A DNA stretch of 64,000 nucleotides from Candidatus Woesearchaeota archaeon (GCA_964466575.1 CAYXNP010000005.1:3938-67937), one strand, 5' to 3'; shown: positions 13,285 to 52,770, counted from the stretch's first letter. Notes: generated from the sequence alone by a model not told the origin. A program made the numbers and translations.

Positions 13285-13342
13285 GCGAAGAAATCTACCG
13301 AAGGTGATTTCGTAGCCATAGATAACACGAATGAAATGAGTG
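13285..13342 (+). repeat. Structured repeat: module B hairpin followed by module A hairpin
   Basis: GC-GAA-GAAATC..GATTTC-GTA-GC, then CAC-GA-AT-GAA-AT-GA-GTG. Confidence 0.7.
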
Positions 13343-13359
13343 GTAAATAAAAATTTAAA

Positions 13360-16300
13360 ATGACAGAAGAAGAAAAACCAATAGATGTTAAAGATGAAAA
13401 AGGAATCATAAACACTGAAATATCAACCGAAATGAAAAAGGCATACTTAGATTATGCTATGTCAGTTATTGTAAGCAGAGCTATTCCTTCAGCAGAAGAC
13501 GGATTGAAACCAGTTCAGCGAAGAATTCTTTATTCAATGAATGCAATGGGATTAAAACCCGGAACTCAAACAAAAAAATCAGCACGTATTGTCGGAGATG
13601 TTATTGGCAAGTTCCACCCGCATGGAGATACAGCAGTTTACGACGCATTAGTGCGGATGGCGCAGGATTTCTCATTAAGATATCCATTAGTTTACGGACA
13701 AGGAAACTTCGGGTGTTTTACGGCCGATACTAAAATTAAACTTGCAGATGGAAGAAATTTATCATTTGCTGAACTTATTGAAGAACATAAACAAGGAAAA
13801 AGAAATTTTACTTATACTATGGATGAGGGGATAATAAAGATAGCTGAAATAAAAAACCCAAGAAAAACAAAAGAAAACACGGAAATTATGAAAGTCATCC
13901 TTGATAATGGGGAAGAAATAAAATGCACTCTTAATCATAAATTTATGTTAAAAGATGGAGATTATAAAGACGCCCAAGAACTAAAGTCTGGAGATTCATT
14001 AATGCCCATTTATTCCAGACTATCTGTAAAATCAGATGATCCTAATGCTATCGGTTATACTATGATTTTTCAGCCAAAATTAAATTTATGGAATTTTGCA
14101 CATATATTATCTGATGAATGGAATATTGAAAATGGAATTTATCAAAAGTCTTCAGGAAGAATAAGACATCACGTTAATTTTAATAAACTTAACAATAATC
14201 CCCATAATATAAGGAGAATGAACTGGAAAGAACATTGGCAAACACATTATAATCTTACTTCTGAAAAGCACAAAAATGATCCGGAATATAGAAAACAGCT
14301 GCAAAAAGGAAGAGAAAAATTCTGGTCAAATGAAGAAAATAGAAAAAAATATTCAAAAAGATTATCTGAAAGAAATTTAGAGAATTGGAAAAAAGAAGAT
14401 TATAGGCAGGAAATGTCAGTTACTTTAAGTGAAGTTAACAAAAGATATTTGAAAGATCATCCTGAAGTTATTGAAGAAATAAGCAAACGAGCTTCTATAA
14501 CTATGAAAAAAATGTGGCAAATGCCAGAATATAAAAGATTATTCCATGATACTATTACTAAAACTAACAAACAAAGAAAAACAAATCAAACGGGCAAAAA
14601 GAAATTTTTGAAAATTTGCAATTACCTTAAAGAAAAGAATATTCCCTTAAATGAGGAAAACTTTGAGAAAATAAGAAAAGATATTTTTGGAATAAAAAGT
14701 TTTACTTCATGGAATTTAGGTTTGCATAAATATTATGAAAATGATAATAACTTGCTTTTAGCAGAAATTAATGGAAATCATAAGGTGGTTGAAATAATAT
14801 TTCTACAGGAGTATGAAGACGTATATGATATTAGCATTGATGTAACGCATAACTTTGCTTTAGCTTCAGGAGTTTTTGTGCATAATTCAATCGACGGTGA
14901 TCCGCCGGCAGCTTATCGTTATACTGAAGCAAGAATAATGCCAATCACTTTAGAACTCTTAGAAGATATTGAAAAAGAAACAGTAAAATTTATCCCTAAT
15001 TTTGACAACTCAACAAAAGAGCCGGTTTTACTTCCAGGAAAATTACCCAACTTATTGTTAAACGGCGCAACAGGAATCGCAGTAGGAATGGCAACAAATA
15101 TTCCGCCGCACAATCTAACAGAAATCTGCGACGCGATAATCACCTATATTAAAAATCCAGATATCACTTTTGAAAAACTTGCACAAATCGTAACAGGCCC
15201 TGATTTTCCAACAGGCGGTTATGTTTCAGGAGACATGCTTGAACTCTACAAAACTGGAAAAGGAAGAATGGTAATGCGTGGAAAAATAACAACTGAATCT
15301 GTACGCAGCAAAGATGCAATTGTCATAACAGAAATTCCATACATGGTTAACAAAACCGATTTAATCACCCAAATCGCAAAAATGATACAGGACAAAAAAC
15401 TTCGGGACGTTTCAGATTTAAGAGACGAATCAAGCAAAGGAAAAATACGAATCGTAATTGAATTAAGAAAAGGAGGAAATTCAAAATTCATAACAAACGC
15501 TATATACAAATACACAAGAATGCAGGACAACTTCAACGCAAACATTTTAGCTCTAGTAGATAACCAACCAAAAGTCCTAAACCTAAAACAAATATTGGAA
15601 GAATACGTCAGATACAGAAAAAAAGTCATAACAAACAGAACAAAATACCTGTTAAAAAAAGCGCAGGAAAGATTAGAAATCGTTGAAGGTTTGCTCATCG
15701 CATTAAATAATATCGACGCTGTAATTACACTAATCAAGAAATCTAAGAACGCAATAGAGGCCTTGGAAGGATTAGTTAAAAAATTTAATTTATCAAGAAA
15801 ACAAGCCCAGGCAGTATTAGATACAAAATTACAGCAGCTAACATCTTTAGAAGTTGAAAAACTCGTGCGGGAACAAAAAGAACTGCATGAGAATATTAAA
15901 GAATATGAAAAAATACTTTCAGATGTCAATGAAGTCTTAAAATTAATAACTAAAGACTTGAACGAATTAAAACGAAAATATGGGGATACTAGAAGAACAT
16001 ATGTATTGCAAAAAGTCGCGGAAATTTCAGAGAAAGACTTGGTGCAAAAAAAAGAAGTTGTTGTGACAATTACTGAAAAAGGTTATTGCAAACGAATGGA
16101 TGTAAAATCCTATCGGGAGCAAAAGCGCGGGGGAAAAGGCGCGATTGGAAGTAATTTAGCAATGGGAGATTTTGTCAAGCAAATGATAACTTGTTCAACG
16201 CACGATTACTTGATGTTCTTTACAACAAGAGGTAAAGTTTATTGGTTGAAAACATACGACATTCCAGAAGCAGAAAAATACAGCAAAGGAAAAGCAATTG

Positions 16301-16989
16301 TTAACCTGTTAAATTTGAAAGATGAAGCGGTTACAAATGTAATCTCAGTTAAATCTTTTGAAGATTCATTATTTATGACAACTAAAAAAGGAATAGTTAA
16401 AAAAATATCCCTGCAGCATTTCTCTAAACTTCGTGCCAGCGGAGTTAGAGCATTAAATCTTCCGAATGACAATTCTGATTTTTTGATTGGAGTAGAAATT
16501 GTCAAACCAAAACAGGAAGTTCTCTTGGCGACAAAAAAAGGGCAGGCAATAAAATTCAACAGTGATGATATTAGAGAAATGGGAAGAGCTTCTTATGGTG
16601 TTACAGGAATAAAAATGAGTAGTGGCGACGAGGTTGTTTCATTGGAAATCTTAGATACAGTCGCTGTTATGACAATTACAGAAAATGGTTATGGTAAAAG
16701 AACTGCTGTTCAAGACTATAGAAAAACAGCTCGTGCAGGAAAAGGCGTTATCAATGTCAAAGTCTCAGAAAAAACCGGCGAAGTTGTAACAACAGTTTCA
16801 GTAAACGATTCTGATTCAATAATAATCACAACTGCAAAAGGAATTGTTATTAGAACTTCTTTGAAGAACATCCGAGTAATGGGAAGAGCCGCGCAAGGAG
16901 TTAGAATTGTAAAACTTCAGCAAGGTGATAAAGTTACTGACTTGGTAAAAGTGCAGGAAGAGAATGGGAATGGGGAGGGAAAAGAGTAA
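13360..16989 (+). CDS. gyrA: DNA gyrase subunit A precursor (intein-containing; 818-aa extein)
   Basis: [23 protein letters not shown] catalytic Tyr, GyrA-box QKRGGKG and C-terminal pinwheel repeats. Confidence 0.97.
13714..14886 (+). mobile_element. 391-aa intein with HNH-like endonuclease in GyrA
   Basis: [10 protein letters not shown] start; [17 protein letters not shown]; ends [15 protein letters not shown]. Confidence 0.95.
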
Positions 16990-16995
16990 AATTAA

Positions 16996-51123: not shown

Positions 51124-52123
51124 CCTTTACCTCCTCAATAGAAATTTTACCGCCTAATAAAGAAATGCATTCAACATCTCTTTTCAAAAAGCCTTCAACT
51201 TCTCCTCGATACTGTCCATCATTCATTTCAATAACAACTATTTTCTCATAATTCTTTGCAGCTTCTTTCAATTCGTCCAAAATAGGAAACAATCTAATCG
51301 GCCTAAAAATCGCAAATTCGTCCTTTAATTCAGAAACAACTCTCGACGTGATTCCATAAGCAATCAACAACGTATCTGCACTTTTGTTTCCATAAAACTC
51401 ATAAAAATTATATTTTTTAATAACAGCTAAAATTTGCTTCTTCCTATTCCAATACCATTCTCTATAACCCTCTGAATTCTTCGTATCAGGAATTCCATTT
51501 TTACTGGACAATCCTGTAAAATGACGTTTCAAATTTCCTAATGGTTCTACGATTCTTTTTTTCAATTCAATTTTCTCGTTCTTCAACTTTTCAAAATTAA
51601 TTGTCTCTGCCATTCTGCTCAATATCCCATCACTCAATAAAATCACAGGCATTCTCGCTTCTTCAGAAGCATTAATTGCATGAATAGTAGTTTTGTAAAG
51701 TTCTGCAACAGAATTCGGATAAAAAACTAAACTTTGATAATCACCGTGGCTTCCGTGCTTTGCTTGCAAAATATCGCCTTGACTACCAACAGTCGGCATT
51801 CCTGTCGAAGGTCCAACTCGCTGACTATCTATTATTAACAAAGGCGCTCCAACCACATAGGCATAACCAATGCCTTCTTGCATCAAAGAAAAACCGGGCC
51901 CGCTTGTTCCAGTCATAGATTTGGCTCCAGCCAGCGACGCGCCAATACACATATTTATTGCAGCAATCTCATCCTCTACCTGCATAAACTTAACATCTTT
52001 CTTAAGAACAGCAAGCATTATATCAGACGCAGGCGTAATCGGATACGATGGATAAAACTTCAAACCAGCCCGAACTGCACCCTCAACAATTGCTTCATTT
52101 CCAGACATAAGTACATTTGACAT
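51101..52123 (-). CDS. 2-oxoacid:ferredoxin oxidoreductase alpha subunit
   Basis: GNEA, YPITP, EDEIAA, TSGPG and QRVGPSTG motifs. Confidence 0.93.
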   Translation of the reverse strand: MSNVLMSGNEAIVEGAVRAGLKFYPSYPITPASDIMLAVLKKDVKFMQVEDEIAAINMCIGASLAGAKSMTGTSGPGFSLMQEGIGYAYVVGAPLLIIDSQRVGPSTGMPTVGSQGDILQAKHGSHGDYQSLVFYPNSVAELYKTTIHAINASEEARMPVILLSDGILSRMAETINFEKLKNEKIELKKRIVEPLGNLKRHFTGLSSKNGIPDTKNSEGYREWYWNRKKQILAVIKKYNFYEFYGNKSADTLLIAYGITSRVVSELKDEFAIFRPIRLFPILDELKEAAKNYEKIVVIEMNDGQYRGEVEGFLKRDVECISLLGGKISIEEVKDELKKIC

Positions 52124-52349
52124 CACAAAGAATAAATTAATTGACTTTTAAAGTTTGTTGATGATAACTATTTTATAAATCACTTCTTAAAACTTTCTGC
52201 AACCTAAAAACTATATTAACCCAGATTTACCAATTATCACCAGTATCAAAGTTGAATCAAATTCACTATATTATTCCTAACAAAATCCACTTATGAATTT
52301 TACAAATTTCTTCAAAAAAATTTATAAACTCTCCTTCCCAATAATAAAT

Positions 52350-52637
52350 ATGGCAAAAAAGAGGGGAATGTCAGAAAGAAAAGAAGCATGGTTTAGAATT
52401 ATAGTATTAATCTTATCTGGAATTATATTAACAATTTGGAAAGTATTAGTTATTATCTTAACAATAATAAATTGGCTTGTCGTTGTTTTCTCTGGAAAAA
52501 GAAATAAAGGCATGGCAAACTTCTGTGAATACTGGAATACTGAAAGCTACAAATTCGCAAGATACTTGACATTAGTAAATAATGCAAGACCCTTCCCCTT
52601 CTCTGACTTAGAAAGAATAAGCAAGTTTGAAAAATAA
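52350..52637 (+). CDS. DUF4389-like membrane protein
   Basis: Two TM helices...RYLT...RPFPFS. Confidence 0.75.
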   Translation: MAKKRGMSERKEAWFRIIVLILSGIILTIWKVLVIILTIINWLVVVFSGKRNKGMANFCEYWNTESYKFARYLTLVNNARPFPFSDLERISKFEK

Positions 52638-52770
52638 ATAAAGACGCCCTAGAAAGATATACCATTTTTTGTTGAACAAATCTGTTGATAGTATACCACA
52701 TTATCAATTCGCGAGCTAGAAGCGAGTGCTAAATAAAAAAGTATATAACTGTCCTTAATTTTATTAATTC

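Follow-up and report, generated by a model that had tools for sequence, protein, structure and literature searches.

A strand-specific G·A hairpin cassette in mosaic, MITE-like repeats of a woesearchaeal genome

The MITEs (miniature inverted-repeat transposable elements) of prokaryotes, archaea included, are small, non-coding and multi-copy, carry inverted repeats, target duplications and ends shared with DDE-type insertion sequences, lie mostly between genes and are specific to particular lineages. Here we describe elements that share these traits in a 64,000-nt stretch of DNA from a Candidatus Woesearchaeota archaeon (GCA_964466575.1, CAYXNP010000005.1:3938-67937; hereafter the window, from whose first letter positions are counted), in which an earlier note, made from the sequence alone, had picked out a small hairpin with two fixed GA steps. 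The elements differ from described MITEs in that their interior is conserved too, as a strand-specific G·A hairpin cassette common to families with different ends, and in that their 13-bp duplication is unusually long. In the text of a MITE census, a Woesearchaea genome stands at 105 MITEs per Mb, among the densest of the archaea (PMC11602168); neither in passages of that text nor in our literature searches did we find a description of the G·A cassette. We propose, with a probability of roughly 0.7, that this hairpin, hp2, stands at the distal side of a cassette that forms the arms of a mobile, lineage-restricted, mosaic, MITE-like superfamily, and that its G·A pairs are kept for the sake of a folded single strand.

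Other described repeats resemble the cassette in part. The REP, BIME and REPIN repeats associated with RAYT transposases are likewise short, one-strand imperfect palindromes found as inverted doublets and mosaics in hundreds of intergenic copies, but the REP stem is GC-rich with a fixed GTAG, whereas the cassette is AT-rich with G·A loops, is accompanied neither by a repeat-flanked RAYT nor by co-occurring Y1 genes, and has terminal repeats and duplications. Rickettsia palindromic elements are mobile repeats tolerated in frame in conserved protein genes, as the cassette is in the genes for Kae1 and an NSUN-type methyltransferase; they belong to another group of organisms and differ in sequence, and here most copies are intergenic, with ends and duplications visible. 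The interchangeable short modules, combined in varying ways, recall the pneumococcal BOX and enterobacterial BIME mosaics, although the modules are different and the RNA effects reported for those mosaics are without evidence here. At the level of the fold, tandem sheared G·A motifs, GNA-loop mini-hairpins such as GCGAAGC and the K-turn and K-loop, which are RNA motifs bound by L7Ae, share with the cassette the Y-GA-R context of both steps and the C(GAA)G loops. As in the K-loop, the two GA steps lie 6-8 nt apart, but here the intervening bases can pair (2 bp and a loop), and the 3-nt bulge of the K-turn is absent, the position beside the G·A pairs being a Watson-Crick C-G pair.

The hairpin and the cassette around it

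In hairpin hp2 (module A of the earlier note), an outer stem of 2-4 bp encloses C-GA-R on its 5' side and Y-GA-G on its 3' side, and between these stand two inner pairs and a loop of 2-4 nt. CTAA(T) usually comes next. The hairpin is present at all nine sites for which the GA/GA fold had been claimed (Table 1). The pattern CGAG-N4-8-YGAG occurs 15 times in the window against 4.24 +/- 1.96 expected, a count reached in none of 100 dinucleotide shuffles; the bare sequence of the A-variant, CGAA-N4-9-TGAG, shows no enrichment (10 against 9.15). One window match, at 59390, falls within the Elp3 coding sequence without any insertion and was set aside as chance.

The host genome (G000) comprises 1.12 Mb in 40 contigs, cited here by C-numbers, with 32% G+C and a completeness of 88.6%. 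Hairpins were counted in it that are closed by a C-G pair and whose outer and inner stems reach at least 3 and 2 bp. Of these, 192 have the GA/GA configuration and 36 the composition-matched AG/AG, while full pairing does not rise above noise (GA/TC 30, TC/GA 23). Hairpins with AA/AA, in a genome that is 34% A, equal GA/GA in frequency (196). When 400 CGAR..YGAG occurrences were taken without selecting for pairing, the third stem pair, given the other two, was Watson-Crick in 113/129, 113/163 and 113/136 cases, against 25-30% of pairs in the CAGR..YAGG control. Double changes were found at four of the five hp2 pairs in 50 aligned units, which had been chosen beforehand for pairing, while the GA columns are invariant. 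The alignment and the unselected pairing test together bear out the earlier observation that the inner pairs covary around two fixed GA steps, and the rarity of fully paired versions supports its corollary, that one strand only forms the fold.

Hairpin hp2 never occurs alone: 5' of it on the GA strand stands either a second hairpin, hp1, or a box of the GTTAAC/GTTGAAC type. In form (a), about 84 nt long, an ATTAACA-type box is followed by hp1, an ATTAATA-type linker, hp2 and then CTAATTTT. In hp1 a symmetric purine loop leads into a stem of 6 bp and, past a bulged T, into one of 3 bp that is capped by a GAA/AAA loop, the purine loop being GA (GC-GA...GA-GC), GAA/GAA or GGA/GGA. Form (b) is simpler, with a GTTAAC-type box, about 12 nt and hp2. 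Two of the nine sites, 13326 and 24626, are two-hairpin cassettes and the other seven are box-and-hp2 arms; in some units hp2 itself varies, as a plain GCGAAGC-type mini-hairpin or as a doubled G·A version.

R1, a covariance model for the 84-nt unit with both hairpins, was built from a 50-unit alignment (A1) with the hp1 pairs set by hand; the automatic hp1 structure from the MAFFT alignment was unreliable, with register shifts. Searched with R1, the genome yields 149 matches (145 at E<0.01), a lower bound because scoring covered 150 of 992 candidates. Cassettes that neighbour each other within 130 nt (n=41) are divergent in 31 cases, tandem in 8 and convergent in 2, and thus the usual element is built of two arms on either side of a short AT-rich centre, each with its GA strand reading outward. 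No Rfam family matched any of 10 cassette loci at E<=1, the window at the gathering threshold giving tRNA-Glu only, and an exact 20-mer of hp2 plus CTAA had no match among the genome contigs or the viral contigs of sequence collections. A search for an autonomous form, in which outward-facing cassettes would enclose a gene, returned only ordinary gene neighbourhoods.

Ends, insertions and distribution

Marks of transposition are carried by a composite family, type II, of about 215-230 nt, with more than 20 copies at 80-93% identity. The aligned copies have terminal inverted repeats, TGTGTA..ATGACATATGTCAT and the inverse ..TACACA, and in five of them 13-bp direct repeats stand just outside the TGTGTA...TACACA ends. 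Direct repeats of at least 13 nt flank 5 of 207 clusters, and in five shuffles of the flanks repeats of 13-21 nt were absent and a single one, of 22 nt, arose. A 12-nt repeat at about 19187-19294 was not counted as a duplication because it is partly element sequence, common to the copy at 18108. In a second MITE family, which has hp2 inside, GTATCTCCGAT stands at both ends, and these ends match those of a DDE_Tnp_1 insertion sequence at C9:25591-26681. The latter (L100 985-2075) is an apparently intact 1.1-kb insertion sequence with a 327-aa DDE_Tnp_1 transposase of the IS4/IS5 type; it adjoins a 250-nt MITE with the same ends, and a second copy lies on the 1.9-kb contig C37.

Insertions were also found within genes. 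In the Kae1/TsaD gene (2931-4061), query residues 213-259 have no partner in the Pyrococcus abyssi Kae1 chain 2ivn, and the insertion (~3567-3708) is missing in the same-genus relative G001 and in G007. A gene for an NSUN/RsmF-like methyltransferase (C9:21652-22983; L096 253-1584) has in-frame insertions of 76 aa and about 35 aa, one R1 unit each, which are absent from solved homologues and from the G001 orthologue. The reading frame and catalytic motifs of this gene are preserved, and two unit-rich relatives, G039 and G006, have longer Kae1 open reading frames (ORFs) of their own, at 390 and 392 aa against 340-341. Presence/absence polymorphism, which the earlier note had proposed to check between strains, is seen at both genes against a member of the same genus.

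At the level of strains, contigs related to ours were available from metagenome runs; they are short and break at repeats. Contigs from two studies (runs X10 and X11) join 52640 to 52728, skipping the 87 nt (52641-52727) that make up a cassette, whereas several long skips with sides of 20-25 nt proved to be other repeat copies rather than deletions. Stretches that no contig of these runs covers, such as those around 44307 and at 48440-48540, carry no information. A further variable intergenic site appears in the same two runs, where 258 different letters stand in place of the 91-nt spacer at 52162-52254, 5' of the genes for pyruvate:ferredoxin oxidoreductase.

The distribution of R1 among relatives is narrow and uneven. 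Across 60 relatives, matches were found in eight, with 33 in G006, 21 in G039, 15 in G011, 3 in G001 and 1-2 in each of four others; in a phylum-wide sample a single genome of 150 had any, and it is a member of the same family. No cassette was found near S10 in the loci of nine relatives, nor near the relatives of a Zot-like gene in 12 metagenome loci (54 kb).

The elements are small (85-230 nt), non-coding and multi-copy, with inverted repeats and target duplications in type II, an autonomous partner with the same ends in the GTATCTCCGAT family only, and insertions, in Kae1 and NSUN, that are absent in the same genus. They are mobile, and in the families with visible ends and duplications they are MITEs.

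By the ORF call ~84% of the genome is coding; of 172 strict hp2 copies, 154 fall outside every ORF of 100 aa or more. A gene is near on the 3' side of hp2 (median 56-171 nt) and farther on the 5' side (median 227-270 nt), which fits hp2 as the outer end of a larger unit. Orientation shows no such regularity: on the 3' side, 70 neighbouring genes run with the hairpin and 76 against it, on the 5' side 80 run with it and 66 against it, and between co-directional gene pairs the cassette runs with both genes in 51 cases and against both in 47. The adjacency to stop codons that the earlier note had seen at 19231, 24626, 33253 and 44307 is real, and genome-wide, of 76 copies that face a convergent gene, 12 are separated from its stop by 0-8 nt; the fixed orientation after stop codons, which the same note had described, does not extend to the genome-wide counts. 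The best reading of copies beside stop codons is that the element went in at or within the 3' end of a gene, its own TTAG or TGA supplying the stop. Random orientation to host genes argues against a role as host terminator or promoter, and the termination signal that had been suggested is not supported. The earlier note had been ready to give up the motif if orientation and position were random, or if polymorphism and structural conservation were lacking; orientation is indeed random, but position, structure and polymorphism speak otherwise.

Movement, the G·A pairs and the alternatives

These observations show that the composites spread by insertion into double-stranded targets at staggered cuts, with terminal inverted repeats and 13-bp duplications as the traces, and that at least one family does so through ends that it has in common with a DDE (IS4/IS5-type) insertion sequence resident in the genome. 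Such insertions are retained in intergenic DNA and, if in frame, in the surface loops of genes. The two sheared G·A pairs would be retained on the outward-reading strand. Which strand carries the 3'-OH at the end of an element is established for DDE transposition, and at each end of a two-armed element the outward-reading strand would be that one. Most likely, we think, the fold would serve as a structure-specific binding site that a factor of the host or of transposition recognises, either in single-stranded DNA or in a transcript running outward.

That the cassette is selected as a folded single strand follows from the pattern of change, if correctly read. The stems vary between copies and genera yet stay complementary, and the GA steps, the purine loops of hp1 and its bulged T are retained; in a double-stranded palindrome, GA would not be expected to stay on one and the same strand in both arms. 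In the pairing test G·T outnumbers A·C at the second inner pair (58 against 26). The molecule that folds may be DNA or RNA.

Several results weigh against this interpretation, in its structural or in its transpositional part. The outer pairs show no wobble asymmetry (G·T 4 and 10 against A·C 3 and 13), and nearest-neighbour folding gives weak z-scores of -0.5 to -2.4 with little difference between strands, whether computed as RNA or as DNA; such unremarkable energies point to specific recognition rather than to stability. The remaining 202 of the 207 clusters have no target duplication beyond the control, which covers most solo cassettes, and for most of these terminal inverted repeats were not seen either. 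Solo cassettes without duplications may be old, may be half-elements or may have moved by another route. The transposase partner of the family with 13-bp duplications was not found in a genome that is 88.6% complete, and in the same assembly Cas1 was not found and an rve match stayed below the cut-off; a casposase could give long duplications. The strain-level joint between 52640 and 52728 offers weak support for polymorphism, its flanks being only 30-35 nt long and replacement being possible. Finally, the cassette occurs in families whose terminal repeats differ, which sits poorly with its being the binding site of one particular transposase.

This last point has another side, as a G·A architecture common to families with different ends suggests a functional module that is carried by transposons. 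One may go further and picture the cassette as a portable, structure-dependent signal captured by unrelated MITE families for the sake of its folded single strand, acting either on the transferred 3'-OH strand of DNA or as a K-loop-like RNA-protein site, for example for L7Ae. We offer this version tentatively and consider it rather unlikely as it stands.

The alternative that survives best is that these are REP/REPIN-like elements moved as single-stranded DNA by a Y1 HUH transposase of the RAYT or IS200/IS605 type; this enzyme would recognise the imperfect hairpins, and a REPIN would be the counterpart of an inverted doublet. Strand-specific hairpins with conserved mismatches and a bulged T in hp1 are what such an enzyme might read, the inverted doublet of a strand-specific imperfect palindrome is the dominant arrangement (31/41), and most solo units lack target duplications. 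GTAG follows hp1 in some units, but it is just one variant among GAAG, GGAG and TGAG. The genome does hold an intact Y1_Tnp gene (C39:506-982) and a broken copy with an hp2 about 80 nt downstream, yet the Y1 genes are flanked by ordinary hairpins without G·A and not by cassettes. Nor does Y1_Tnp track the cassettes across the 60 relatives: none was found in G039 (21 units) or G011 (15), while Y1-rich G044 (10 matches), G016 and G032 have no units, these genomes being 71-89% complete. The composites, moreover, have terminal inverted repeats and 13-bp target duplications, and HUH elements are not known to make such duplications. We therefore regard movement by a Y1 enzyme as improbable. The earlier note had inferred the end of a non-autonomous, single-strand-mobilised element; a non-autonomous mobile element it is, but hp2 is subterminal or internal rather than terminal, the datable carriers having terminal inverted repeats with 13-bp duplications, and the single-strand route is not supported, one family having DDE ends and the Y1 genes being IS200-like, with other flanking hairpins and without a link to the number of units.

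As to the Y1 genes themselves, the intact copy encodes 158 aa with an HLH motif, and the second (C22:16172-16423) is broken by a stop and a frameshift. An upstream region common to both copies marks them as an IS200-like element. A match to the TnpB zinc-ribbon domain was below the cut-off and contained a stop.

Could the cassettes instead be primarily small non-coding RNA genes or host signals, such as a terminator or insulator with a U-run, outward promoters or L7Ae-type sites, whose repetitive nature is mere appearance? Compensatory changes around fixed G·A pairs would suit an RNA, as would the hp2 loops (CUUG, GNRA-type and GAA), the excess of T at +7 to +10 after hp2 (0.54-0.63 against 0.34 in the genome) and the spacing of ~20-22 nt between the ATTAATA linker and CTAAT, which fits the archaeal TATA-to-start geometry. 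The ATTAACA box, however, lies ~12 nt 5' of hp1, too near to be a TATA box that places hp1 in the transcript, and no Rfam family matched the 10 cassette loci at E<=1. The cassette also shows no preference in its orientation to flanking genes (51 against 47, 70 against 76), is lacking at the S10 sites of nine relatives and in the 54 kb around the Zot-like gene, ranges from 0 to more than 145 copies among close relatives, and is inserted in frame into genes in both orientations. A primary function of this kind is thus very doubtful, although an RNA-level role of the mobile cassette itself is possible.

Least of all do we credit an origin by chance or base composition, in which short palindromes of AT-rich DNA would have no selected G·A feature: AA/AA hairpins are indeed as common as GA/GA and the bare A-variant is not enriched in the window, but the controls refute it, with AG/AG at 36 and fully paired forms at 23-30 against 192, a window count of 15 never reached in shuffles, pairing of 83-88% against 25-30%, and 145 covariance-model matches at E<0.01, so that its chances are next to nil.

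Copies in the window and what they mean

The reading that we favour, of mobile MITE-like units built on a G·A cassette, is illustrated in the window by solo cassettes, single arms and divergent pairs (Table 1).

Table 1. G·A cassettes in the window, with the span of each hp2 hairpin. R1 entries give the covariance-model match on contig C5.
Feature	Position	Strand	hp2	Details
Divergent box + hp2 pair	3567..3708			in frame in Kae1/TsaD gene; ~43-47 extra residues in surface loop
Solo two-hairpin cassette	13275..13358	+	13326-13342	ends 2 nt 5' of gyrA ATG; R1 C5:17212-17295, 76.9 bits
Divergent box + hp2 pair	18067..18178		18067-18085 (-), 18165-18178 (+)	outer stem of 18165-18178 just 2 bp; GAATCT..GTTAAC-type boxes between; repeat coverage
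Box + hp2 arm	19187..19248	+	19231-19248	TGAATCTGAGTTAAC box, 13-nt spacer; adjoins 3' end of Cas4-like PD-(D/E)XK gene (19253-20089, minus)
Solo two-hairpin cassette	24574..24657	+	24626-24641	CTA 24642-24644 is stop codon of small minus-strand ORF; R1 C5:28511-28594, 59 bits
Additional hp2 copy	29422..29438	-	29422-29438	TGCGAACAAAGTGAGCA; not listed in the earlier note
Box + hp2 arm	33222..33270	+	33253-33270	T-run + AGTTAAC, 12-nt spacer; 5 nt from stop of minus-strand gene 33276-33980
Divergent pair	34380..34542		34380-34395 (-)	cassette 34466-34542 (+) with hp2 variant TTTGCGAAGCAAG; R1 C5:38403-38479
Type II family cassette	35981..36103	-	35997-36013	multi-copy, extra inserted modules; R1 C5:39918-40040
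Box + hp2 arm	44307..44375	-	44307-44322	CTAA overlaps TAG stop of lactate permease gene (42726-44306)
Box + hp2 arm	48480..48534	+	48517-48534	GTGAATCCAGTTCAC box; between S10 gene and next gene, antisense to both
Box + hp2 arm	49740..49785	+	49770-49785	T-run + AGTTAAC
Box + hp2 arm	52641..52728	+	52710-52728	T-run + GTTGAAC

The type II copy coincides with a peak of contig depth in four metagenome runs, at 35-224 against a baseline of ~3-78 (other bins). A separate multi-copy module, with at least nine copies by blastn coverage, lies at ~49880-49965, 3' of the arm at 49740..49785; it has an inverted repeat, CGACGTGATTTCG...CGAAATCACGTCG, around a G-run tract in which a G-quadruplex could form, and is probably part of module B, which the earlier note had placed beyond an AT-rich spacer. 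Just downstream of the cassette at 44307, a short and very acidic ORF with runs of E and D occupies 44427-44530 on the minus strand.

Other genes of the window include those for eIF2-gamma, aIF5B, S6e, Kae1 and TrmB regulators. The genes gyrB and gyrA form one locus (9082-12294 and 13360-16989), and both contain inteins (Pfam Intein_splicing). At 53576-57458, two adjacent pairs of a carbon-nitrogen hydrolase and a RimK-like ATP-grasp protein are mirrored around tRNA-Glu (55585-55657).

At least 145 cassettes of 84 nt amount to ~12 kb, a sizeable share of a very small genome, and they rewrite the ends of genes and lengthen essential proteins, Kae1 among them, by peptide loops. The R1 model and the anatomy described here can be used to mask or annotate repeats in metagenome assemblies of Woese- and Pacearchaeal organisms, to account for breaks between contigs and to spot ORFs that are spuriously extended. 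If the fold acts in DNA, on the transferred strand at each end, it would represent a new architecture of transposon ends in archaea; if it acts in RNA, a site on the outward transcript would insulate the compact genes of DPANN archaea from insertion. Either a transposition that reads structure or an RNA-protein signal would be a new mechanism in the biology of archaeal mobile elements.

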